Below are positions 1,908-23,048 of a DNA stretch of 64,000 nucleotides, piece after piece. The stretch is taken from positions 1 through 64,000 of IMG/VR virus record IMGVR_UViG_3300050021_000500; one strand, given 5' to 3'. Origin of the DNA: a virus. How positions within the stretch are numbered: position 1 is the stretch's first letter; each line of letters begins with the position of its first letter. The notes under the pieces are model-generated. The model was not told the origin of the DNA. It worked only from the letters and a program-made list of their open reading frames with translations, and searched no databases. The translations under genes and the position numbers were made by a program.

Positions 1908-2318
1908 TTATTTGTCCTGTTTCGCGCGCTCGGGCTTGTTGCCGAGGGCGGCTTGAACCGCGGCGGCCACCACGATCGCCAGGCGCCCGTCGTCTTCGGG
2001 CGAACTGCGGATAATCATGGTATTCTTGCGCGATTCTTCGATCTTGGCGAGGCGTGCCACTTCCGTGGCTCGCTCCCGCGTGTAACGCTCGATCTCCTCG
2101 GGCGTGGATTTCTTGTGCGTCCCGTCGGCCAGGCGGCTGGCGGCATTATGAGCGCTGGCCGGGAACACCTGGCCTCCCACCATGCCGGTCCGGCGGTTTT
2201 CGATGGACGTGACGTAGAACGTTTTCTGGCCGGTGGCCGCGAGTTCGGCCTGGATGGCCATTTGGTCCTGCCAATAGGCACTCGTGCCTTGAGCGGATTG
2301 CGATGTCGTTGCGAACAT
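1908..2318 (-). CDS. Capsid-adjacent hypothetical protein (paralog of 6840..7262)
   Basis: Shares TSIEN.R.GMVGGQ.F.....NAA.R.ADGTH..ST with 6840..7262. Confidence 0.75.
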   Translation of the reverse strand: MFATTSQSAQGTSAYWQDQMAIQAELAATGQKTFYVTSIENRRTGMVGGQVFPASAHNAASRLADGTHKKSTPEEIERYTRERATEVARLAKIEESRKNTMIIRSSPEDDGRLAIVVAAAVQAALGNKPERAKQDK

Positions 2319-2384: not shown

Positions 2385-3326
2385 TTACAGGCTCTGGACG
2401 TCGACGCCGTAGTTGTTGCGGAGGACGCCGACCCCGTAGAGGCAATCGACCGTGAACTGCTGCGCGAGAGTGCCGGGAGCGTAGGACATGACCACGCGTA
2501 CACCGAAGTTGCCCATCTCGGCGTACTCGGCAATGGCGCCGGTTCCGGGAAGAGGCTGCGGCAGACGACGAATCACGAGAGCCAGCGCGTTCCGGGCGAA
2601 TACCAGGTTGTGATACGTGGTGGTCGTCGTGGTCTGTACGTACTGCGAGCGGTAGATCGAAATACCCTTGAGGGTTCCGCCTACCGTGCCGGCCAGGCTT
2701 CCGCCGGGCAGCGCGCCGGTTTGGATCGGCGACGGCTGACCCGAGGGGCCGAGCATCTGGAACTCGCTGAAGCGCGGCAGTTGGCGGATGGCCGAATAGG
2801 CCGAAGTGCCGACCACAGCGAAACGGGGATCGCCCTGCGGGACGAGGCTGTTAGCCAGGGCCGTTTCGGCGGAATCCAGGCGGGCTTCGTCGAACGTGGA
2901 AGCGCCGCCCAGGGCCGTATTGGCCGTGAACAGCGTGTAGCAGGCCAGCAGATCGTTTTCGATGCGCGTGGCAATGGCGATGATGGCCGGACGCAGGTAG
3001 GTGTCGAGCAGATCGACCGAAGCCAGTACCTTGGTGGCGTCGGGAATATTGAAGGTGGACTCGACGTGCTGGTTGAGCACGATCTGGGCGTTGCCGAGAG
3101 ACGGATTCTGATTGGTGACCGTGCCGGCTTCCATGAGGTTGTTGGCACTCATGCTCGGGGGGATTGCCACGTTGACGGTGTCGCCGCCGGCGACCATGAC
3201 GGGGTCGAAGTCGCGGTTGACCAGATTGCCCATGACGAGATTTCCGACGAGCGGCTCAAGGGCGCGCGCCGCCACGAATTTGGCGATGGCCTGCGCGATA
3301 TTTACGGAGGTGATTTCGTTAGCCAT
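2385..3326 (-). CDS. Major capsid protein (P22 coat protein family, HK97 fold)
   Basis: LVGNLVMGNLVNRDF..GDTVNV..P motif, C-terminal TVDCLYGVGVLR, located after scaffold. Confidence 0.9.
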   Translation of the reverse strand: MANEITSVNIAQAIAKFVAARALEPLVGNLVMGNLVNRDFDPVMVAGGDTVNVAIPPSMSANNLMEAGTVTNQNPSLGNAQIVLNQHVESTFNIPDATKVLASVDLLDTYLRPAIIAIATRIENDLLACYTLFTANTALGGASTFDEARLDSAETALANSLVPQGDPRFAVVGTSAYSAIRQLPRFSEFQMLGPSGQPSPIQTGALPGGSLAGTVGGTLKGISIYRSQYVQTTTTTTYHNLVFARNALALVIRRLPQPLPGTGAIAEYAEMGNFGVRVVMSYAPGTLAQQFTVDCLYGVGVLRNNYGVDVQSL

Positions 3327-3733: not shown

Positions 3734-4465
3734 CTAGGTTACGTTGCCGTCCTTGATGTCCTGCAGCATGGCCTGGAGCTCAGCCGGCGTCTTCCCTGCC
3801 ATCTTTTGGGGCGTGATGTCGGACAGCTTGAGTGGGCCGCTGCTTTTGCGGGACGCATTGCCCGCGGCAGCGCCGGCGCCGCCGCCGCCTTTAGGTACCA
3901 GCATCTGAGCATAGTCCCTTTCCGCCAGATCTTTCAGATAGGCCTTCATGGGCAGGACACCGTTCTCGCTGTCGGCTACAAAACTGCCGTCGTCTTCGCG
4001 CCTGATGTCACTCTGGGTGGCGCGAAAGAAGAGCGTGCGGAGACCTTCGGTGTGAAACGGGATATCATTCAGGGCACCCCGAATGGCGGTCGCGCGCTCC
4101 GTATCGAGGCGGGACTTCCGTTCCGCGTCCTTATCCTCGTTGGCTTTTTTCTCGCGGGCTTCGACTTGCGACAGTTGGCGTTTCAGCGCCGCGAGTTCCG
4201 CATTGATTTCCGGTGCAATTTTCGGATTGGGCGGCGGATCCACCACCGGGGCGGCGGGGTCTGGCGGGGCGGCGGGGTCGGCGGATGCCGGCGCGGCCGG
4301 CGTGACGGATTTACTCAACGCTGCGAATTTCTTGTCCAGGGCGTTGATGCCTTTGTTGAACTCGCCCAAAATTCGGGCGGTGAAAGCCTCCGGGTCGAAG
4401 GGCGGTGGAGGCGTGGGGTTGGGGTTGGTGGGGTCCACGACGGGATCCCCGAGTTTTACGGCCAT
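3734..4465 (-). CDS. Capsid scaffolding protein
   Basis: Pro-rich N-terminus, coiled-coil core, GGGAG linker, upstream of capsid; start at MAVKLG. Confidence 0.8.
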   Translation of the reverse strand: MAVKLGDPVVDPTNPNPTPPPPFDPEAFTARILGEFNKGINALDKKFAALSKSVTPAAPASADPAAPPDPAAPVVDPPPNPKIAPEINAELAALKRQLSQVEAREKKANEDKDAERKSRLDTERATAIRGALNDIPFHTEGLRTLFFRATQSDIRREDDGSFVADSENGVLPMKAYLKDLAERDYAQMLVPKGGGGAGAAAGNASRKSSGPLKLSDITPQKMAGKTPAELQAMLQDIKDGNVT

Positions 4466-4510
4466 AAATGTTTTGCTTCCTTCCCGCGATTGAAGTGCGC
4501 GGCCACGTAA

Positions 4511-4537
4511 CCCGTGCTTCGATAGCCCCACGGCGGG
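4511..4537 (-). repeat. Head-gene leader motif copy 1 (upstream of scaffold)
   Basis: CCCGTG-CTTCGATAG-CCCCACGGCGGG. Confidence 0.7.
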
Positions 4538-5290: not shown

Positions 5291-5317
5291 GGTTTTCAGA
5301 ACCTCAATTACTTAAAG

Positions 5318-5415
5318 CGGTGAAAGGCTTCGCGGATGGATGGCTGTGACGGTGCGGGCTCGTGATGCGCCGCCGGCCCAACCGTCGCCGTAGGACGGCG
5401 CTGGGCCGGCTCTGG
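5318..5415 (-). repeat. Paired hairpin element A (L-type; pairs with F)
   Basis: CCAGA GCCGGCCCAGC [GCCGT-CCT-ACGGC] GACG GTTGGGCCGGC GGCG..GAGC..CGAAGCCTTTC on - strand. Confidence 0.9.
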
Positions 5416-5493
5416 GGCCAACTGTCCACATGAAGTCCAAGGCAATTCTGACGCGCTATTGACAAAACACGCGAAAGCATGCGTAATGGAGTT

Positions 5494-5718
5494 ATGAATT
5501 CTGTGCAGGCGACACAACTCAGCGAGCGGCAAGTCGAAGAAGAATACGGCATCAACTCGCGTACTCTACAGGGGTGGCGAACCCGCAAGAAGGGGCCGCC
5601 GTACTTGAAAGTCGGCGGGACTTTGGTACGCTACAACCGCATCGAATTGGAGGCGTGGATAGAGTCGAGCCCGCATTATCTTTCAGTGCCCGGCGAACTG
5701 GCGAGCCGGGATGCCTAA
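5494..5718 (+). CDS. AlpA/excisionase-like winged HTH protein
   Basis: LSERQVEEEYGINSRTLQGWR..KGPPYLKVG..VRY; TTGACA-N17-TAATGG upstream at ~5459. Confidence 0.85.
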   Translation: MNSVQATQLSERQVEEEYGINSRTLQGWRTRKKGPPYLKVGGTLVRYNRIELEAWIESSPHYLSVPGELASRDA

Positions 5719-6238
5719 AATACGCCGGTGGCGTGAACGTAGAACAGTCAAACCACTTCCGGGTCCTATCCTCAAGGGGACCATGCATCTGTTGCTGGAA
5801 GTGTTTGACGTATGTCCGGAAAGCGGCTATGTGCCGCACGTCAATCCGAACATTGCGCGCAGGTATGAAGCCCTTAGCGAGGAAGCCTTGTCAACACTGT
5901 TGTCCCAATTCCCAGACGTCCTGCTGCACAGTGATTGGGAAAGTGACGATGGAGGCCAGGCCGTGGTGATGATGGTAATGGCCCTTCGCCAAATTACCCA
6001 TGGCGTTATCCAGGCAACCGATCATGAATTGGACATTTGGGCCAGGAACCTAACCGTCATGATGCCCCAGGAAGGTCTTCGCCGACTTCACTATGTGGAG
6101 ATTGATGACTTTCCGGGGCCTACGTCTGGGCTCTGGCGCGAAGATTTGAGCTTCCATCAACGCATGGGCTGGGCGGCCCCAACACTGGAATCCACTCTGG
6201 CTGAAGTAAAACGGCGTGGTCTGGACTTCCCTGTTTGA
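5711..6238 (+). CDS. Hypothetical protein
   Basis: 175-aa ORF overlapping the AlpA stop. Confidence 0.55.
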   Translation: MPKIRRWRERRTVKPLPGPILKGTMHLLLEVFDVCPESGYVPHVNPNIARRYEALSEEALSTLLSQFPDVLLHSDWESDDGGQAVVMMVMALRQITHGVIQATDHELDIWARNLTVMMPQEGLRRLHYVEIDDFPGPTSGLWREDLSFHQRMGWAAPTLESTLAEVKRRGLDFPV

Positions 6239-6504
6239 CAATGGATGACGACTTTACGGACGCCCTGCAATGTTTCGATAGAGGCCGTGTCCCGGACACG
6301 GAGAATCACTTCGGGGTCTCCATCGGATGAATGCGAAAGCTGCTGTTGTAAGCCGTTTTGAATTGCGTCGAGTACTGCTTCGTGACACGGCAAGTCGCCA
6401 GTCAGAACGACATGTATGGTTCTCGTTTTGTCGTGACAGTATACGCCCTCAGCGAGTTTGTGCATGCCCTTGAACGACGGCGTCAGTCGTGTGAGTTCTT
6501 TCAT
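6157..6504 (-). CDS. Hypothetical protein
   Basis: GGAG RBS, 115 aa. Confidence 0.45.
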   Translation of the reverse strand: MKELTRLTPSFKGMHKLAEGVYCHDKTRTIHVVLTGDLPCHEAVLDAIQNGLQQQLSHSSDGDPEVILRVRDTASIETLQGVRKVVIHCQTGKSRPRRFTSARVDSSVGAAQPMR

Positions 6505-6525
6505 AATGATTCTCCGGACAGCGCC

Positions 6526-6822
6526 TCAACCCCCGTCGGGCGGACGCTGATATCGACTGCCTTGTCCGAGTGTGACCAGGAAGCGCATCAGGCGGTCAAT
6601 AGAAAACTGGGTCAGGCGGCCGCGTTTCAGCGCGCTCACTTTCGGCTGGTTGATGCCGAGCAGTTTCGCCGCCTCTACCTGGGTAAGTCCCCGCTGTTCA
6701 ATGATCTTGTTGATGTGGCGCACGAGGTCCGACTTTGCCAGCATTTCGCCAGCATTAGCGAAGCCAATGTCAGCAAAGACATTCCCGCTCCCAGCGATAC
6801 TTTTAGCCATTCTCCCTTTCAT
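6526..6822 (-). CDS. XRE/HigA-like HTH antitoxin, no cognate toxin adjacent
   Basis: GSGNVFADIGF..A.E.LAK...RGLTQVEAAKLLGINQPKVSAL..GRL..FSIDRL. Confidence 0.85.
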   Translation of the reverse strand: MKGRMAKSIAGSGNVFADIGFANAGEMLAKSDLVRHINKIIEQRGLTQVEAAKLLGINQPKVSALKRGRLTQFSIDRLMRFLVTLGQGSRYQRPPDGG

Positions 6823-6839
6823 CCACTACGCCAAATGCT

Positions 6840-7262
6840 TCATGCTGCGGCGGAGCGCCCCACCCAGACGGCGGCCCTTCGCCGTGAAGTCGATGCCAGC
6901 CATTCGGCGTGCTCTAGCTCATCGGCCCGGAATTCAAGCACCTCAACCTCCGTCGATAATCGGTGCGTTCCGTCAGCGATTCGCATAGCGGCATTCCAGA
7001 AAACGCATTTGAAGGACTGACCCCCCACCATTCCCATGCGCTTGTTTTCGATGGAGGTGATGGTGCATTCCGTGAAACCCGGGAAGTCCGCACGGAGTTC
7101 CGATTCTAAGCGTTTCACTTCCGCCCAATACGGGGGGCATCCGGTGCCCTCCGGTATCACCCAATAAGGGTAGCATTCGGTTCCCTTCGGTTTCAGCTTC
7201 CCAATGAGAGGCAGCGCTCCCAGGAGAGGCAACAGGGCAAAAAGTTGGCGGCGATTCATCAT
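6840..7262 (-). CDS. Hypothetical protein with Tat-like N-terminus; C-terminal half paralogous to 1908..2318
   Basis: MNRRQLFALLPLLG; shared ~45-aa block. Confidence 0.65.
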   Translation of the reverse strand: MMNRRQLFALLPLLGALPLIGKLKPKGTECYPYWVIPEGTGCPPYWAEVKRLESELRADFPGFTECTITSIENKRMGMVGGQSFKCVFWNAAMRIADGTHRLSTEVEVLEFRADELEHAEWLASTSRRRAAVWVGRSAAA

Positions 7263-7280
7263 GGTTCAATCTTAGCTCCC

Positions 7281-7380
7281 CCAGAGCCGCTTCAGCGGGC
7301 CGTCTTCGGCCCGACGGTTAAAGCGGCGGCGCCGAGCAAGCGCCCCGCGCGCTGAGGCCAAGGCCCGATAGCTTTAAGCG
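7281..7380 (+). repeat. Paired hairpin element F (R-type; pairs with A)
   Basis: CCAGA GCCGCTTCAGC [GGGCCG-TCTT-CGGCCC] GACG GTTAAAGCGGC GGCG..AAGC..CCCGATAGCTTT. Confidence 0.9.
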
Positions 7381-9494
7381 TTAACGTTCGTTCTCCAGCG
7401 GATCCGGTCCACCTTGCCGCCCAGCGTGTCCGTTCGCAGATCCTTCCGTTCCGTGGGGACGGCGAGGATCATGGCCGACACGATGCCGCCGAATACGTTG
7501 ACCGGGTTGTTACGAAAATTGTTCGGGTTATAGAGCGGGATGTGGTGCTGATACAGCCGGTAATTGTGCTCCGTGAGCCAGAGGCCCAAGGCTTGCGTCG
7601 ATCCCTCGCGGTCGTTCTCCACGTAGATGAGCGGCCGGCAGCGCGCGATGGTCTGCTCCGCGCCTTTGAGGACGTCCAGCTCGTGACCTTCGCAGTCAGC
7701 CTTGAGGAAGTCCAGACATTGCAGTTGGAAACAATCGAGCGTATTCTGCATGACGGTGGGGCTCAACGGGTCGGTTGGCTGTTCTATAACGGCGCACCCG
7801 CCGGGGTTCCGTGCGTCGAATCCCTGCATCCGGATCTCGCGGCAACTGGCACCGAGAGCGGAGCGGAAACTATAGACGCCGGGGCGCCCCGCATTCTCAC
7901 ACAATATCTGGAAGACACCGAGTTGTGGCTCAAACGCGAAGACGCAACCGGTGGGGGCCACGATCTGCGCCAGCACCACGGTATGCGCGCCGATGTTGGC
8001 TCCGGCTTCCACGACCACATCGCCCGGCTTCAGCAGGCGGCGGAAGAGGCCGGCTTCACCTTCAGACCATTCCCCATAAAGGTCCAACGATCGGCCGAGC
8101 CATTGGTCTGTGGGGTAGAACGTCATCGGACCGTAGCGGCACTGGCGGGTGATGGTAGTTGCTCTTATAGGCTCGACACCAGTGTTCGTTTGCAGCGTCT
8201 GTACAGCGTCGGACAAGTCCCTCTTCACCCGCTCGATCACGGCCTGCCAATCGTTTGTCTCCTCCTGCCGGTAGAGCCGCATGGAGGGATACCATGGGGT
8301 CCGCGTCCCTTCCGCGCCCCACCGCCAGTCGCTCAACGTCGAAAGCAGCACCCACACCGGCTTGCCCAGCGCGCCCGCCAAGTGCGCCATACCGGTATCG
8401 ACCGAAATCACGAGGTCCAGATGGGCCATCTCGTCGGCTACGTCTGCCCAATCGTGGCAAAGGTCCCGCAGGTTATGCAGGCCCGATTCCGTGTCCTTCA
8501 TCTGAAGCGACACGAATTCGACGCCCGGAACCTCGAGCAGGGGCTTCAGGTGTTCGAAGGCCATGGAGCGGAACTCATCGCGCGCGTGCTTCGGGTTGCC
8601 CTTCCAGGAAAGACCCACGCGAAAGCTCGATGTCCGGGTGACCGCACGACCGAGATATGGCCCTGCGGTTTCGAGAATCCGAGCCGTACCCAGTTTCAGC
8701 GGCAAGCTGCTCATGCCCACCCAGCAATCCAGTTGCACGGTATGCGCCTCGGCATCCGAGGTCACAATTCGAGCCCAGGGAAACGCGCGGGCGAACAATC
8801 GCGCCAACTCCGGATAGCCGTAGACGATTACGTTGGCGCCCAGGTCATGCAGCAGCGGCAAATAGCGCGAGAACATGATCTCGTCGCCGAGCCCCTGCTC
8901 CCGGACCACCATGATGGTCTTGCCAGCGAGCGGCTCGCCATCCCACTCCGGGTATTCATCCATCGGGGCAACCAGGCTGATGCGGCTGGGCCGGTGCTCG
9001 TAGTCCTTCCACCCCTGCGCATAATCGCCTAGTTTCAACTTCAGGCAGGCGCGGGCGAAGAGCAGATCGTGGTTGCCGGGTTCGATCTGGAGCCCATCGC
9101 AGAGAGCCCAGCCGGCGCTTTCCACCAGGCCCTGTTGCTCGTAGATCGAATAGAGCTCGAGGTAGGCCGAGACGCACATCGGGTCGGCCATCAGGGCCTG
9201 CCCACACCAGTTGTTCGCCTGAGCAAAGTCTCTCAGGTGGTCGCACGCCAACGCCAGATTGATACACGGCAAGGGGTCCTTGCTATCCAGACTGGCCGCC
9301 TGGATGAAGCACTCACGCGCGCGTGTCCACTCTTTGGCTGCCATATGGCAGCGGCCGAGGCCGTTCCAGGCTTTGGCGTTGGCTTGGTCCAACTCCAGCG
9401 CCCATTCGTAGACCCGCCGGGTGATTTCCGACTCCTTGGGCTTGGCACCGGCCAGCTCGGCGAGGAAAGCGGCGAGTTCGGTGGCGCACGTCAT
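7374..9494 (-). CDS. TPR + glycosyltransferase (GT9-like) + FkbM methyltransferase fusion
   Basis: N-terminal TPRs; EQGLGDEIMFSRY, DLVISVDTGMAHLAGALG..WRW..TPWYPSMRL; then EAGANIGAHT, AFEP, FLKADCEGHE. Confidence 0.9.
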   Translation of the reverse strand: MTCATELAAFLAELAGAKPKESEITRRVYEWALELDQANAKAWNGLGRCHMAAKEWTRARECFIQAASLDSKDPLPCINLALACDHLRDFAQANNWCGQALMADPMCVSAYLELYSIYEQQGLVESAGWALCDGLQIEPGNHDLLFARACLKLKLGDYAQGWKDYEHRPSRISLVAPMDEYPEWDGEPLAGKTIMVVREQGLGDEIMFSRYLPLLHDLGANVIVYGYPELARLFARAFPWARIVTSDAEAHTVQLDCWVGMSSLPLKLGTARILETAGPYLGRAVTRTSSFRVGLSWKGNPKHARDEFRSMAFEHLKPLLEVPGVEFVSLQMKDTESGLHNLRDLCHDWADVADEMAHLDLVISVDTGMAHLAGALGKPVWVLLSTLSDWRWGAEGTRTPWYPSMRLYRQEETNDWQAVIERVKRDLSDAVQTLQTNTGVEPIRATTITRQCRYGPMTFYPTDQWLGRSLDLYGEWSEGEAGLFRRLLKPGDVVVEAGANIGAHTVVLAQIVAPTGCVFAFEPQLGVFQILCENAGRPGVYSFRSALGASCREIRMQGFDARNPGGCAVIEQPTDPLSPTVMQNTLDCFQLQCLDFLKADCEGHELDVLKGAEQTIARCRPLIYVENDREGSTQALGLWLTEHNYRLYQHHIPLYNPNNFRNNPVNVFGGIVSAMILAVPTERKDLRTDTLGGKVDRIRWRTNVNA

Positions 9495-9830
9495 TTATGC
9501 CGCCGCCTTTGTCGTCACGTTCCGCGCGGCGCCGCACCGGGCGCACACGTCCTCCAGCCAATCGTGCCGCATCCAAGGTGCCCGACACCGCGGAGCCTTA
9601 CGCGCGCGGCTCGCCTTTGAAGGCGAGGAGGTAACGGCGGCAAGCGTGCCGCGGAAGCTGCCGTCCGGAGCAACCCGGTACACGCGCTCCCGGTCCATTT
9701 CGATCACGTCGCCCGGCTTGCCGCGGTACAGCGTGCCACGCCCGCGCTCCGCGCTCCGGCGAACCGCCGCTTTGCTGGTCCCCCGAGCAAAGGTCCTCTC
9801 TGCCGCCAACTTCTGTAATCCCGTCATCAT
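9495..9830 (-). CDS. Basic hypothetical protein with C-terminal Zn-knuckle
   Basis: C...HDW...CARCG; translationally coupled. Confidence 0.55.
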   Translation of the reverse strand: MMTGLQKLAAERTFARGTSKAAVRRSAERGRGTLYRGKPGDVIEMDRERVYRVAPDGSFRGTLAAVTSSPSKASRARKAPRCRAPWMRHDWLEDVCARCGAARNVTTKAAA

Positions 9831-10048
9831 ATGAGTTTCTCCGTGAATCCCCCGTGCAGCGCCAGCAAGTCGTTTTCGACTTTCTGCGCGATCGCCGCCA
9901 CCGCTGGTGCCATGTACATCTTCAGTAGATCCGGTACCGCCAGCACCTTGGTCACATCCGAAATCTGGAACGTCGCTTCCGCATGAACTCCCGTTTCTTC
10001 CGCCATCGAAGTCCCCCTTACCAATTTCTCCAACACCAGCCGAGCCAA
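9827..10048 (-). CDS. Mini-protein homologous to an internal segment of the major capsid protein
   Basis: HAEATFQISDVTKVLAVPDLLKMYMAPAVAAIAQKVENDLLALHGGFT vs own capsid HVESTFNIPDATKVLASVDLLDTYLRPAIIAIATRIENDLLACYTLFT. Confidence 0.8.
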   Translation of the reverse strand: MARLVLEKLVRGTSMAEETGVHAEATFQISDVTKVLAVPDLLKMYMAPAVAAIAQKVENDLLALHGGFTEKLI

Positions 10049-10153
10049 TACGCCGTGAAGCGGCGCCGGCCATGCCAGTTGAATTGCGGCACTAACTGGA
10101 AGCCCGTGATCGCGCGCACCGAATGATGCGGGCGCGGCAACCGGAACGCGAAC

Positions 10154-11764
10154 TTACGCCACTGCCCCCACTTCATTTTTCGCCTGCTGTCGCGTGGCCA
10201 GCCGGTTGAAGCTCTGCGCAAAGGCCTGCTGCTGTTGAGCTACCTGCTGATCCTTCCCTTGCTGCTCGCGTTCCGCCGTGGTAGGCGATGCGTCGATTTC
10301 GTCGAAGATCGTTTGCTTGATGTCTTCGTTGCGGTCTTCGAGATAGTCCGCCGCCACTCGCTTCATACAGGCTTTTTCCAGCGTCTTGCTGGCTTCGAAG
10401 ATGCCAAGATCCAGCATCTCCTGGGCAGTCCCAATGGATTCGGTCACCGGCTCCGTGGTGAAGGTGAAACCAGAAACGTCCAGAGTGGTTGTCTCGTCGT
10501 CTCCCCCGCGGGCGACTACCACGTCGGCGAATACGTCCTGCATGACGTTGATGATGCGGTCGCCGAAGCCGTTGAGAATTTCGTTGGCCGGCATCATGTC
10601 TATCTCTTTCGAATAGCCGGAGGCTCCCGACGCCGAAGCGCTCGAAGATCGTCCCTGCGCCTGAAGGTAGAAACTTCGGTAGATTTCCTCGCGCAAGGTA
10701 TCGAGGCGGGCCTGCGAAAGCGCGTAACTGGCCGCCGGCGGCGCCGCCCATTCGAACTTGTCGTTCGGGCCGAACATCAGGTAGCCCACTTGCGAGATGG
10801 TCATCGGCCCGGGATCGCGGTCGCTGAACACAATCGGCATGGGGATGTTGCCCATGAACAAGCCCCAGGCCAGCGAATTGTCCTGGTTCAGGTGATCGAC
10901 CAATTGCAGGAAGCTGCGATTGCCCAGCCACAATTCCTCAGGCAACACGATACGGCGGATGGGCACCCGATTGACCGCGGCCAGGGCGTGCGTTCCCTCA
11001 TCTTCCAACTCGGCAAAGGCGCTTTCCTGCTGGATGTTTTTCCCGTTGGAATCGATCAGTTGAATGGTCTGACCGTCCGTGAATCCGTCCTGGTTCTTGC
11101 CCTGGATCGCCTTCTCGGTGCCGTCCCACTTGTAGACCTGGTATTTCTGCCGGTCGAAGTAATACCAGCGGATCACGGTCCCCGATGCTTCGAGAAACGT
11201 GCGCTGGTCCTCGATGGCTTTGATGACCACCCATTCCAGGTTGCCGGCTTCGTCCGTCGCCCAATTCAGCACGTCCTGCGGGGCGTACTGCACCACGTAG
11301 GGCTTGTCGAGGCCCATCTGCTGTTCATCGGCGCGGCTCTGCGGCTCCGCCAGGGCTTTCGGGCGGTCCGTCAGTATCCAGGCTCGGCCATAGAGCGCCA
11401 AGTTGCGGAACGTCGCCCGGTGAAAATCGCTGTAGGAGCTCGCGGCGCGGTCGCAATTGCCAAGGAACTCCTTGTACCAGGGATCGGCGCCATCCGGCTT
11501 GATGTTGATCTGTGGATTCCTGCGCCAGAGCTGCGAGGTATACCAGCCCAAGACGGTGCCCAGGATGTTCTGGTAGGTCAACCGGCGGATTCTTTCTGCG
11601 TATACATCAACGAGCTCCTTCGGCGCCCTCACCAGGAACTGCTCGGCCGCCTGCTTGAGCCGGATTCCCCCGGAGGCGAGAAGCTCGAACATCTCCCAGG
11701 CCTCAGAGTAAAGCACATGCTCAGGGGAGCGGCGGTTGAGTTTGGCAACGGGGACTTGGGGCAT
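10154..11764 (-). CDS. Portal protein
   Basis: 536 aa downstream of terL; Y..R..R..Y.N, YGRAWILTD, PY..QY.PQD.LNW, ASG.SKEID pattern of SPP1/DUF4055-like portals. Confidence 0.85.
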   Translation of the reverse strand: MPQVPVAKLNRRSPEHVLYSEAWEMFELLASGGIRLKQAAEQFLVRAPKELVDVYAERIRRLTYQNILGTVLGWYTSQLWRRNPQINIKPDGADPWYKEFLGNCDRAASSYSDFHRATFRNLALYGRAWILTDRPKALAEPQSRADEQQMGLDKPYVVQYAPQDVLNWATDEAGNLEWVVIKAIEDQRTFLEASGTVIRWYYFDRQKYQVYKWDGTEKAIQGKNQDGFTDGQTIQLIDSNGKNIQQESAFAELEDEGTHALAAVNRVPIRRIVLPEELWLGNRSFLQLVDHLNQDNSLAWGLFMGNIPMPIVFSDRDPGPMTISQVGYLMFGPNDKFEWAAPPAASYALSQARLDTLREEIYRSFYLQAQGRSSSASASGASGYSKEIDMMPANEILNGFGDRIINVMQDVFADVVVARGGDDETTTLDVSGFTFTTEPVTESIGTAQEMLDLGIFEASKTLEKACMKRVAADYLEDRNEDIKQTIFDEIDASPTTAEREQQGKDQQVAQQQQAFAQSFNRLATRQQAKNEVGAVA

Positions 11765-11774
11765 TCAGGGAGCC

Positions 11775-12107
11775 TTAATTTGAAACGAGCGTAACTTTCA
11801 CTTTTTGGCCCGAGGTGCCATGGACCCAGAAGACCGCGGGATCCACCAGGTATGCGCCGGACACCGGATCGTTGAAGCGGTCCAACGGCACGCCGGTCAC
11901 TGGGGCCGCGAGCTCCTGGATACTGACGCCCGTTCCATTGTTGGAAACATTGGCGAGTCCGACGTAGGCCGCGGCGCCGTTGCCGCGCAAGGGCTCGATC
12001 AGGACGCGCCGCGCCAGGGCATGTGCCGGCCAGTCGGTGACGCCGTTGGTGGGATCCGTCAATTGGATAGCGGTGGAACCGAAGGTAATCAAGGCTGAAA
12101 AGATCAT
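11775..12107 (-). CDS. Hypothetical small beta-rich structural protein
   Basis: AAGGAG RBS, 110 aa. Confidence 0.6.
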   Translation of the reverse strand: MIFSALITFGSTAIQLTDPTNGVTDWPAHALARRVLIEPLRGNGAAAYVGLANVSNNGTGVSIQELAAPVTGVPLDRFNDPVSGAYLVDPAVFWVHGTSGQKVKVTLVSN

Positions 12108-14207: not shown

Positions 14208-15569
14208 TTAGATCAGCCGTTCCGGCCTCGCCCCGCCCGGCTGCCGTAGGCCCATCTCGCTTTCGATCAGATACCCGAGCGCGTCGGACACGTGCGTCAA
14301 CTGCGGATCCGAGGTCTGATCGAGCGATCCGGTACCCGGCTTGAACGTCACCCGCTCCAAGTCGCGCACCAGGTTCTTGCATCGCGGATCCACGAACACG
14401 CGGCGCTGCTGCTGGGAATTACAGAGCCCGGCATTCACCGCGGCGACGCGATCGCGCACCGATGGATTCGAGGACTTGTACTTGAAACTGACCTGGTATT
14501 CTCGCCGGTTGGCGAAGAACTGCCGGATCACCGCCCAATCGCTGTTGGCGCCGGCGCCCACCGCCCGCTGTCTCGCACTACCCGAGGCGTCACCGTAGAC
14601 GTAGACCTGGAGAGGAGTTCCGTGGTGAAAGAGCTTCGTGTGCTCCACAAACTCTTCGCAGGCTTCCGGGGTATTCGAATCCGGCAGAAACAATTCGTCG
14701 ATCACGTGCACCGCCAGGCGTCTGCGGCCCATCAGGACATCGCTGCGATCCGACTGGTCTTCGATCTGAGCGATTATCGAGCACATGGGGTTGATGTTGA
14801 AATCCAGAGACCAGTAAAGCGGGCTGCGCGGTTCGTATTCCAATTCGCGGACGTTCTGCCGGCGGTCGAAGGCGTAGTAGGCGGCTCCGCTGTTGAGCGA
14901 GAGGTACTCGCCCATCACCTCTTGCCGGTAGAGCCGTTCGTCGTAACCCGCTTGCAGGGCTTCGTACATCCCGGTCTCGGCCACGTACTTGTTCTCGCGC
15001 GGAGAAGCCAGGGTGGCTTTGTAGCCCGGCTTCGGATCCGCGATGAAGGTCTCGTAGACCCAATCGAAGCCCTTGGGCGTCCATGCGGCGAATCCGCATC
15101 TCCGGTTGGCCGCAGGATGCCGCAACCTGCCTTGTAACCGGCTCCAGGCGGCCGGCGGGCAGTAGGTCAGTTCATCCAGTCCGAACCATGCCAGGTTCGT
15201 GCCGCGCAACCGTTCGAAGTTGTCCAGGCTGCGAAACAGAATCTCGGAGCCATAGAAGGGCGGGTCCGGCAGCGTCAGGATGCTTTCGGTAACCCCAAAG
15301 TCGAAACGGATATCCTCGGAGTCCAGAATCTCGTAGACCGTCCGCAGGGTGGCATCGCGCAGCATCGGGTACGTCGGGGCTCCTATGAGCCCGGGCAACC
15401 CAGGATTCATCGCCGCCAGAAAGAGCGCCTCGTAAATCAGCGCATACGATTTTCCGCTGCCAATCGGCCCAGAGTAGCCCTTGTAGAGCGTGCTCAGGTC
15501 GGCGTGGAATCTTCGTTGACTGGGGAGAGGCTCATATCGCCAGCCGGTTTCAACTGCTTCAGCAACCAT
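14208..15569 (-). CDS. terL: Terminase large subunit
   Basis: Walker A GPIGSGKS, Walker B GLDE, TPKGFDW, nuclease DFNINPM and HVSDALGY. Confidence 0.95.
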   Translation of the reverse strand: MVAEAVETGWRYEPLPSQRRFHADLSTLYKGYSGPIGSGKSYALIYEALFLAAMNPGLPGLIGAPTYPMLRDATLRTVYEILDSEDIRFDFGVTESILTLPDPPFYGSEILFRSLDNFERLRGTNLAWFGLDELTYCPPAAWSRLQGRLRHPAANRRCGFAAWTPKGFDWVYETFIADPKPGYKATLASPRENKYVAETGMYEALQAGYDERLYRQEVMGEYLSLNSGAAYYAFDRRQNVRELEYEPRSPLYWSLDFNINPMCSIIAQIEDQSDRSDVLMGRRRLAVHVIDELFLPDSNTPEACEEFVEHTKLFHHGTPLQVYVYGDASGSARQRAVGAGANSDWAVIRQFFANRREYQVSFKYKSSNPSVRDRVAAVNAGLCNSQQQRRVFVDPRCKNLVRDLERVTFKPGTGSLDQTSDPQLTHVSDALGYLIESEMGLRQPGGARPERLI

Positions 15570-15916: not shown

Positions 15917-16022
15917 GGTTGAGAAGGCTTCGTGGTTGCGTGGCTTCTGCCAGGCGGCTCGTGCTCCGCCGCCGACGCTACCGTCATCGGGCAAAAGCGG
16001 CCCGATGCAGCATCGGCTCTGG
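15917..16022 (-). repeat. Paired hairpin element C (R-type stem, immediately upstream of terS)
   Basis: CCAGA GCCGATGCTGC [ATCGGGC..GCCCGAT] GACG GTAGCGTCGGC GGCG..GAGC..CCACGAAGCCTT. Confidence 0.9.
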
Positions 16023-22462: not shown

Positions 22463-22515
22463 GGCTATACTCCTTGTTCTTGTTGGATTTCTTTGGTACT
22501 CCGCGCAAAACTCAG

Positions 22516-22618
22516 CGGTTAAAGGGTTCGAGGTTTGGTGGCTTCAGGGTGCGCGCTCGTGATGCGCCGCCTGGCCCAACCGTCGCCGTGGGACGGCGCT
22601 GGCCCGGCTCTGAAGTCA
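22516..22618 (-). repeat. Paired hairpin element B (L-type; pairs with G)
   Basis: TGACTTCAGA GCCGGGCCAGC [GCCGT-CCC-ACGGC] GACG GTTGGGCCAGGC GGCG...CTTTAACCG. Confidence 0.9.
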
Positions 22619-22948: not shown

Positions 22949-23048
22949 TGACTTCAGAGCCGCTTCAGCGGCCGTAGGCCGACGGTTGAAGCGGCGGCGT
23001 GGAGCGAGCGCCTCGCACAAAAGGGCAGGACCCCGATAGCTTTAACCG
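22949..23048 (+). repeat. Paired hairpin element G (R-type; pairs with B)
   Basis: TGACTTCAGA GCCGCTTCAGC [GGCC-GTA-GGCC] GACG GTTGAAGCGGC GGCG...CTTTAACCG. Confidence 0.9.

Follow-up and report, generated by a model that had tools for sequence, protein, structure and literature searches.

A small open reading frame built from a foreign capsid-gene fragment upstream of an accessory gene in a phage

The mini ORF and its surroundings

The DNA studied here, called the window, is the first 64 kb (64,000 nucleotides, nt) of the IMG/VR virus record IMGVR_UViG_3300050021_000500, which measures 83,914 nt in full. The head genes of this peat-soil phage run on the minus strand in the order large terminase, portal, accessory genes, scaffold-like gene and capsid. 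Between the portal gene and orf112, an accessory gene of 111 amino acids (aa), lies a short open reading frame (ORF), referred to as the mini ORF, which holds a piece of a capsid gene of foreign origin. A first-pass annotation, made from the letters alone, had singled it out as a capsid fragment. The comparisons below draw on one relative, L003, an 11.9-kb IMG/VR contig that is 83-92% identical to the window at the nucleotide level in aligned blocks (about 11% diverged) and has the same gene order: portal, mini ORF, orf112 and a TPR-glycosyltransferase-methyltransferase fusion gene. The features of the window are as follows.

9827..10006, minus strand: mini ORF, 59 codons from ATG 10006-10004, plus the stop TGA 9829-9827; product P0001
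9832..9986, minus strand: foreign-capsid patch of about 150 nt, corresponding to positions 85-134 of a 303-position capsid profile (blastn and profile match)
10012..10019, minus strand: Shine-Dalgarno-like (SD-like) AAGGGGGA, 5 nt ahead of the mini ORF ATG
9827..9830, minus strand: ATGA overlap of the mini ORF stop and the orf112 start, identical in L003
9495..9830, minus strand: orf112, 111-aa accessory gene with homologues of 86, 85 and 64% identity
9835..10011: stretch of 177 nt missing in a natural variant, with 4 other letters instead (peat-metagenome contigs)
2385..3326, minus strand: the phage's own major capsid gene, 313 aa, P22-coat family (PF11651, E=2.6e-10; phrog_283, E=3.6e-29)
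3734-4531, minus strand: scaffold-like gene
10154..11764, minus strand: portal gene (phrog_145, E=1.5e-39)
14208-15569, minus strand: large terminase gene
7374..9494, minus strand: TPR / glycosyltransferase-9 / FkbM-methyltransferase fusion gene, 706 aa (PF05050, 1.1e-12; TPR families; PF01075, 5.8e-6)
10018..10176, minus strand: candidate 52-codon ORF in the interval between portal and mini ORF, overlapping the portal 3' end

Over an ungapped block, the mini ORF product shares 28 of 48 residues (58%) with positions 87-134 of the capsid that the phage itself encodes (tblastn against the window, E=5e-14), in agreement with the first-pass annotation. This match lies at 3068..2925, while every other non-self tblastn match in the window had E>=1.1, and the whole 83,914-nt record has two capsid-like places, the own capsid gene and the mini ORF. 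A profile built from 52 unique full-length capsids of the family was then searched, with filters off, against every one of the six frames at 9780-10200 and in the corresponding L003 stretch. It matched with positions 85-134 alone, scoring 81.9 bits in the window and 67.5 bits in L003, and nothing else rose above 0 bits; the remnant of the N-terminal capsid helix that had been proposed upstream of the block was rejected for this reason. It is through this custom profile that homology to the capsid family is seen (81.9 bits), as no Pfam or PHROG model matched the 73-aa product of the longer frame at E<=0.01. With 50 of the 303 profile positions present, a complete capsid fold is lacking, and by its sequence the product is a capsid fragment, not a capsid protein.

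The reading frame is intact from 9827 to 10048 (minus strand), as had been claimed, and it is coupled to the next gene, its TGA stop overlapping the orf112 ATG in the letters ATGA at 9827-9830. The frame had been read from TTG 10048, the first classical start in it, to give 73 aa. We consider this start unlikely and favor ATG 10006 (59 aa), because the 59-aa P0001 has been recorded, AAGGGGGA stands 5 nt before this ATG, and the codons upstream show more nonsynonymous than synonymous change in this frame. The 59-aa form was recorded by gene callers and is held in the public protein collection from nine contigs, and the 14 codons from TTG 10048 to ATG 10006 gave a ratio of nonsynonymous to synonymous substitution rates (dN/dS) of 1.45 between the window and L003. 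The position directly after the portal gene also had to be revised, since 147 nt separate the two, and a further small ORF may lie in between. Mini ORF and portal share one reading frame, open from the portal stop codon onward; a read-through extension of the portal was rejected, as the 49 intervening codons show a higher proportion of nonsynonymous (pN, 0.138) than of synonymous differences (pS, 0.083) in that frame. The candidate 52-codon ORF in the interval encodes a Trp/Arg-rich product. Compared with L003, the one diverged lineage available for it, it has pS 0.269 and pN 0.070, with a guanine-cytosine (GC) content of 0.81 at third codon positions, and the other two frames at 10018-10176 have pS<=pN.

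The mini ORF frame is the most coding-like of the three (pS 0.21 and pN 0.079 against L003), and its GC content by codon position is 0.66/0.34/0.69. It has the anatomy of a coupled upstream ORF, with an SD-like site and a start on one side and a stop overlapping the next start on the other, both of which are kept in L003, as is the G-run of AAGGGGGA. The peptide is probably made, judging from these signals. The mini ORF, orf112 and the 706-aa fusion gene form a tightly packed run, in which the orf112 stop directly adjoins the ATG of the fusion gene, the last gene of the run. No promoter- or terminator-like site was found in 9300-10500, the interval from portal to orf112 included, nor was there any Rfam match at E<=1 in this region, and the RNA folding energy was not better than that of shuffles (z=+0.98).

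These data bear on the explanation that the patch is an untranslated scar, that is, inert filler DNA whose open frame is left over from the capsid frame and has yet to decay. The finding of neither an RNA family nor unusual RNA structure in 9300-10500 would suit such a scar. However, a good SD-like site 5 nt before the ATG and an ATGA overlap kept in L003 do not, and in a dense same-strand operon lacking a terminator the patch would be transcribed with its neighbors. Together with the divergence data given below, we regard the scar as improbable.

No Pfam or PHROG family matched orf112. Its family comprises four clusters among 5.8 billion proteins, is confined to this phage group, and has an invariant C-terminal motif with a Cys. 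The fusion gene behind it encodes 890 aa in L003 (7724-10396) and 706 aa in the window (7374-9494), the difference lying in an extension at the N terminus and an insert within the protein.

Origin of the capsid patch

The patch and the own capsid gene share 58% of nucleotides and 58% of amino acids, which bears out the earlier view that the block is too diverged for a self-duplication and lies nearer to other Acidobacteriota P22-type capsids (69-88% aa identity, versus 58% to the own capsid). A scan of IMG/VR with the peptide returned at least 568 capsid-encoding loci; 79 of the 80 loci kept cover residues 8-55 of the peptide (58 at the furthest) with identities of 76-88%, and the remaining one, L003, aligns with residues 1-59. 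The corresponding scan of GTDB species genomes returned at least 178 loci, and the 80 kept were nearly all from Bryobacterales, Bryobacteraceae, Candidatus Solibacter, Terriglobia or Acidobacteriota, with one from Verrucomicrobiia. When 159 capsid loci were compared by blastn, all 145 matches fell inside 9986..9832, the best being 87% over 154 nt. Homology begins abruptly 21 nt past the ATG and ends abruptly at the orf112 start. Such sharp ends, combined with a parent gene from another lineage, are what marks a mosaic junction. An alignment also showed loose similarity between the capsid sequence past the patch and the orf112 start region, which may be junction microhomology, although it is too weak to claim.

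Over a 144-nt core, the nearest capsid was 87.5% identical in nucleotides, with a family median of 82% in pairwise comparisons. In a tree of 123 patches, the mini ORFs of the window and L003 were sisters (support 0.84, stem 0.022), and the pair fell within a capsid clade of 20 members (support 0.98), among them the Candidatus Solibacter loci L086 and L087 from metagenome-assembled genomes (MAGs). The own capsid lay about 1.0 substitutions per site away from the mini ORFs. Based on these relationships, the patch is of foreign origin and not a copy of the own capsid gene. The sequence reconstructed by parsimony for the common ancestor of both mini ORFs agrees with the 15 nearest capsids in almost all codons, even at synonymous sites, and this near-identity suggests that capture took place shortly before the two phage lineages split.

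The first-pass annotation had mentioned an element resembling a gene transfer agent (GTA) as a possible owner of such a capsid, and on the evidence of its genes the likely source is indeed of this kind, since the nearest capsids lie in a chromosomal, GTA-like head-tail cluster, whose capsid genes match the patch at 85-87.5% of nucleotides. The cluster that encodes these 303-aa capsids is compact and collinear, with the following composition and loci.

Genes: large terminase, portal (phrog_145), scaffold, capsid, head-closure-like, minor-tail-like
Tail genes: DUF2460 protein, Phage-tail_3 (J-like) protein, TIM-barrel tail protein (TIM-barrel_NCTSP)
Loci: L076:1-13980; L089:6398-20144 with L167:11356-15501 (G001:C14, about 989355-1006323)

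On a 1.3-Mb contig of a Bryobacterales MAG, the cluster measures about 17 kb. Cellular genes (a HAMP sensor and a Ser/Thr kinase) stand directly upstream of its terminase, a convergent OEP-HlyD-ABC2 efflux operon follows its last tail gene, and no integrase was seen among the ORFs scanned there. The genome has a single capsid copy. When this locus was taken as reference and compared with 37 other 20-kb genome loci, its head-tail ORFs were present and collinear in 34-37 of them, and the cellular genes upstream of it in just 2-11. A cluster that is chromosomal, holds head-tail genes only and is conserved across an order appears GTA-like, particle formation being putative. The phage and the cluster seem to be distant relatives, because over its full length the own capsid shares about 60% identity with the capsid family of the cluster. 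We found no paper describing a GTA-like cluster in Acidobacteria in a literature search. The likely donor is thus a head-tail-only cluster of about 17 kb found across Solibacter/Bryobacterales, and it may represent an undescribed gene-transfer-agent-like system of Acidobacteriota.

At the DNA level, the 64-kb window and the cluster loci have in common only the own capsid gene (median 69.5%), the terminase gene (71%) and the patch (up to 87%). A role of the patch as nucleic acid, either as a homology arm to the cluster capsid gene or as an RNA interfering with that gene, would agree with its being the sole high-identity island between the two and with a similarity as strong in nucleotides (up to 87.5%) as in protein. 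We nevertheless consider this role very improbable. A stretch of 150 nt at 80-87% identity is generally a poor substrate for homologous recombination. The patch has the same sense as the phage operon, which rules out pairing between its mRNA and that of the capsid gene, and neither the search for promoter-like sites, which covered both strands of 9300-10500, nor the folding energy mentioned above lends support to a separate RNA.

Conservation, divergence and loss of the mini ORF

The L003 mini ORF encodes P0002, a product of 56 aa with 45 of 56 aligned residues identical to P0001 and with the same first seven and last four residues. In a collection of 5.8 billion proteins, the mini ORF accounts for just two clusters at 90% identity. 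Searches for further carriers among viral and metagenome contigs turned up none beyond L003. Among viral contigs, the orf112 query gave 23 stretches with one relative, on the same contig as L003, and the query with its homologue P0012 gave 16 stretches with no relative. Among metagenome contigs, the orf112 alignment gave 56 stretches and no relative, while a degenerate pattern of the first codons of the mini ORF gave two stretches, both chance matches.

The stretch 9400-11800 occurs in about 20 peat-metagenome runs, and four of these (X7, X11, X14 and X18) were compared with the window through their Logan contigs. X14 and partly X11 had no phage-type cover over parts of the stretch, X14 being uninformative at the mini ORF. 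One 561-nt contig of X7 links 9834 and 10012 via four other letters, with sides of 386 and 171 nt and no mismatches, and in X18 the same joint with the same four letters was present (side 70). The mini-less variant was seen in two of the four runs, with flanks identical to the window over 557 nt, and mini-bearing contigs identical to the window occurred in X11 (9936-10115) and X18 (9821-9971). The deletion spans from 5 nt before the mini ORF ATG to 4 nt before the orf112 ATG and, as worked out by hand, places AAGGGGGA 8 nt before the orf112 ATG. An SD-like ribosome-binding site ahead of orf112 is kept in both forms, as expected if selection protects orf112 expression.

Because this variant has identical flanks and lacks the mini ORF, the mini ORF is dispensable in nature. 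Secondary loss is the parsimonious explanation, since L003, at 11% divergence, shares both the ORF and its junctions while the mini-less flanks match the window. On the same grounds, it is unlikely that the mini-less form is an ancestral empty site, and recombination retains a small chance of lying behind it.

Taking origin, anatomy and loss together, we give the following account about an even chance of being right. Roughly 150 nt from the middle of the capsid gene of a Solibacter-type GTA-like cluster would have been inserted, by illegitimate recombination, just upstream of orf112 before the window phage and L003 split, and the insertion would have been tolerated since orf112 stayed expressible. 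The SD-like site and the ATG would open a 59-codon ORF through the capsid patch, this ORF would end on the ATGA that starts orf112, and translational coupling would hand the ribosomes on. The peptide, although probably made, would be dispensable, at most weakly constrained and devoid of a function of its own, a tolerated by-product in the form of a coupled upstream ORF rather than a proven weapon against capsids.

Selection on the mini ORF was assessed by comparing two diverged lineages, the window and L003, with the lineages of the orf112 homologues P0010, encoded on an 843-nt contig, and P0012, encoded on a 70-kb contig, left out. The Nei-Gojobori method gave 8 synonymous and 11 nonsynonymous changes and a dN/dS of 0.38, compared with 0.06 for portal, 0.08 for p160, 0.14 for p110 and 0.26 for orf112. 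A binomial test on the mini ORF alone gave p=0.055. When the number of changes was fixed in a simulation, 6 synonymous versus 11 nonsynonymous codon changes were not unusual under neutrality (p=0.28), and 31% of the neutral simulations left both ORFs open. In its rate of change, the peptide equals orf112 and exceeds the core head genes about threefold. The first-pass annotation had made conservation and a non-neutral dN/dS the check on whether the fragment is more than a recombination scar. Conservation held for L003, the one diverged relative found, and failed in the natural variant. The dN/dS of 0.38 is equivocal, being not clearly below 1 in tests internal to the ORF (p=0.047-0.28) but below neighboring synonymous rates (p=0.0008).

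The positions of the changes are also informative. In the window, P16S lost a residue that is invariant in 120/120 capsid patches, and Y51H changed a site conserved in 118/120. In L003, T19-K20-V21 were deleted, and L22V and A23V arose, all at residues invariant in 120/120 capsid patches. From these patterns, the capsid-type constraint is gone; some other, weak constraint may exist but is unproven.

Several observations weigh against a mere by-product. The deletion in the L003 mini ORF is of 9 nt and in frame. The nonsynonymous divergence of the mini ORF (0.085) equals that of a real gene, orf112 (0.080), and is below the synonymous divergence of orf112 (0.26; Fisher, p=0.0008), that of the pooled flanking genes (0.34; p=7e-10) and that of its own synonymous sites (0.20; Fisher, p=0.047). 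Its total divergence, 19/168, is likewise below that of pooled four-fold sites (0.235; p=4e-5), although the local four-fold rates are lower than the pooled one (0.18 in orf112 and 3/22 in the mini ORF). In the helix part of the peptide (codons 24-49), there was no change in the L003 lineage, and the window lineage changed only at sites that vary among capsids. Moreover, a presence/absence polymorphism is equally typical of useful accessory genes, every rate test is fragile and of low power because only two diverged lineages carry the mini ORF, and illegitimate recombination is a mechanism that we infer from sequence only.

The part of the capsid that was captured was located in an AlphaFold model of the donor-type capsid, built from a 61-sequence alignment (predicted local distance difference test, pLDDT, 85.6; predicted template modeling score, pTM, 0.81). 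An earlier model from a shallow alignment of 47 close sequences had reached a pLDDT of 44 and was discarded. The model matches HK97-fold capsids, among them those of mycobacteriophage Douge and cyanophage A4 and the P22 procapsid, with E down to 1e-13. In it, the captured segment comprises a strand (85-93), a short helix (96-101) and a long helix (103-131), the last of which we take, following the usual naming, to be the 'spine' helix of the HK97 fold, with the strand leading into it. The segment makes up one sixth of the capsid protein and would be unlikely to fold alone. Prediction of a complex between the mini peptide and the donor-type capsid, run without controls, gave a score of 0.01 and a mark of 0.32, a result that speaks neither for nor against binding.

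This structure underlies another explanation, in which the 59-aa peptide is a selected mimic that copies the strand and spine helix of the capsid protein of the putative host cluster. Such a mimic might bind capsid subunits of the GTA-like particle, or those of rivals that build this type of capsid, as they fold or assemble, and so poison the process; alternatively, it might engage a host sensor keyed to this capsid element. In either case it would be an accessory trait useful in some hosts only. The first-pass annotation had put forward a poison, a decoy or a modulator of capsid assembly and size as candidate functions. We regard selection for mimicry as possible, if rather doubtful. It would fit a peptide that is close to the cluster capsid type and not to the own capsid, an ORF that is intact in both diverged lineages (in one despite the in-frame deletion), a nonsynonymous rate about one third of neighboring synonymous rates (p=0.0008 to 7e-10), a helix segment that is the best-kept part, and an SD-like site within a tight operon. 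In addition, cluster capsid genes are present in the same peat runs as the phage, on contigs that continue as capsid sequence. However, residues invariant in 120/120 capsid patches were lost in both lineages, in one case through a deletion in the strand-helix linker, the internal dN/dS tests are weak (p=0.047, 0.055 and 0.28), and a natural variant with identical flanks does without the ORF. The distribution is narrow, at two 90%-identity clusters in 5.8 billion proteins, the junction-specific and orf112-based scans of metagenome collections found no further case, and a lone strand and helix would hardly fold by themselves. Nor did a literature search find a paper on a phage-encoded foreign capsid fragment or on such a mechanism, and the accessible parts of PMC5900883, PMC12142844 and PMC13581612 held nothing relevant to foreign capsid fragments or to the Acidobacteria cluster.

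The more specific proposal of an optional accessory peptide that sabotages the host GTA-like particle or rival phages, or that blinds a capsid-keyed host system, seems unlikely. If it were true, it would be a virus-encoded 'fragment poison' against a host-domesticated virus-like particle; should the peptide prove functional, it would represent a novel kind of weapon or decoy in which a piece of capsid is turned against the host GTA-like particle.

For the untranslated scar, the comparison with L003 and the variant cuts both ways. A young acquisition whose ancestor was nearly identical to donor-type capsids, frames that stay open in 31% of neutral simulations and the existence of a deletion variant are all compatible with inert DNA. 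On the other hand, the total divergence lies well under that of four-fold sites, and the L003 indel is a multiple of three.

Some further observations concern the neighborhood. In L003, an HNH-endonuclease-like ORF (L003:4588-5388, minus strand; motif judged by eye) lies between the 110-aa gene and the portal gene, and it suggests a homing-type insertion because the window has a 10-nt gap there. The window also contains a family of intergenic repeats of about 50-100 nt that are 78-87% identical (5316-5414, 7282-7380, 22514-22612 and 22955-23048), with shorter copies near 15924, 47895, 52074, 52607, 55549 and 56977. The pair at 5316 and 7282 flanks a 2-kb block wholly missing from L003, for which reason the repeats may mark cassette borders. 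There is, besides, a second paralogue pair: a 140-aa ORF inside this L003-absent block (6840-7262, minus strand) is 42% identical over 71 aa to a 136-aa gene (1908-2318, minus strand) that comes next after the capsid gene. The idea that the paralogue at 6840-7262 and the capsid patch are relics of one second head module was rejected, as L003 has the patch without the 5300-7380 block.

Comparison with known systems

Satellites of phages encode proteins that interfere with capsids, such as Sid of P4, CpmA and CpmB of Staphylococcus aureus pathogenicity islands (SaPIs), and the capsid homologue Ccm of capsid-forming phage-inducible chromosomal islands (cf-PICIs). The mini ORF would resemble them only as a selected mimic, that is, as a small protein acting on the capsid assembly of another element. 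Those proteins are satellite-encoded, whole and folded, and were shown to bind the helper capsid, whereas the mini ORF is phage-encoded, specifies a 59-aa fragment and is known from sequence alone.

Capsid segments can also be sensed by the host. In T4, the Gol peptide of gp23 activates the Lit protease. CapRel SJ46 is activated by the major capsid protein, according to the accessible part of PMC9712102. Both cases are in line with the premise of a decoy, namely that a short capsid segment can be recognized by the host. In both, however, it is the phage's own capsid that is sensed, while the mini ORF resembles the capsid of a putative host cluster and its own capsid at just 58%. The decoy model fits poorly for this reason, and the mini ORF is not placed among satellite capsid-redirecting proteins or known anti-defense families.

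Two other classes come closer to the preferred account, in which a captured capsid piece became a coupled upstream ORF. Mosaic junctions of tailed phages hold gene remnants, small novel ORFs and 'moron' insertions that arise by illegitimate recombination followed by selection. The mini ORF is like them in its sharp borders, its foreign origin, its nature as a gene fragment, its place at the border of an accessory cassette, and its presence or absence among close relatives. It differs in stemming from the capsid gene of a host-chromosomal GTA-like cluster with the frame kept, and in having gained a start, an SD-like site and coupling to the gene that follows. Upstream ORFs that are translationally coupled through an ATGA overlap are found in many phage and bacterial operons. 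The mini ORF shares with these the SD-like site and ATG, the stop overlapping the downstream start, and conservation in a relative; unlike the usual ones, it is built from captured capsid sequence, and its natural deletion puts orf112 directly behind the same SD-like site. By analogy, the mini ORF would work like a coupled upstream ORF and would have arisen like a gene remnant at a mosaic junction. It may thus offer a clean case of the birth of a phage mini-gene, in which a foreign capsid piece captured beside a ribosome-binding site became an open, coupled ORF, was kept over about 11% divergence and is now being lost in part of the wild population.

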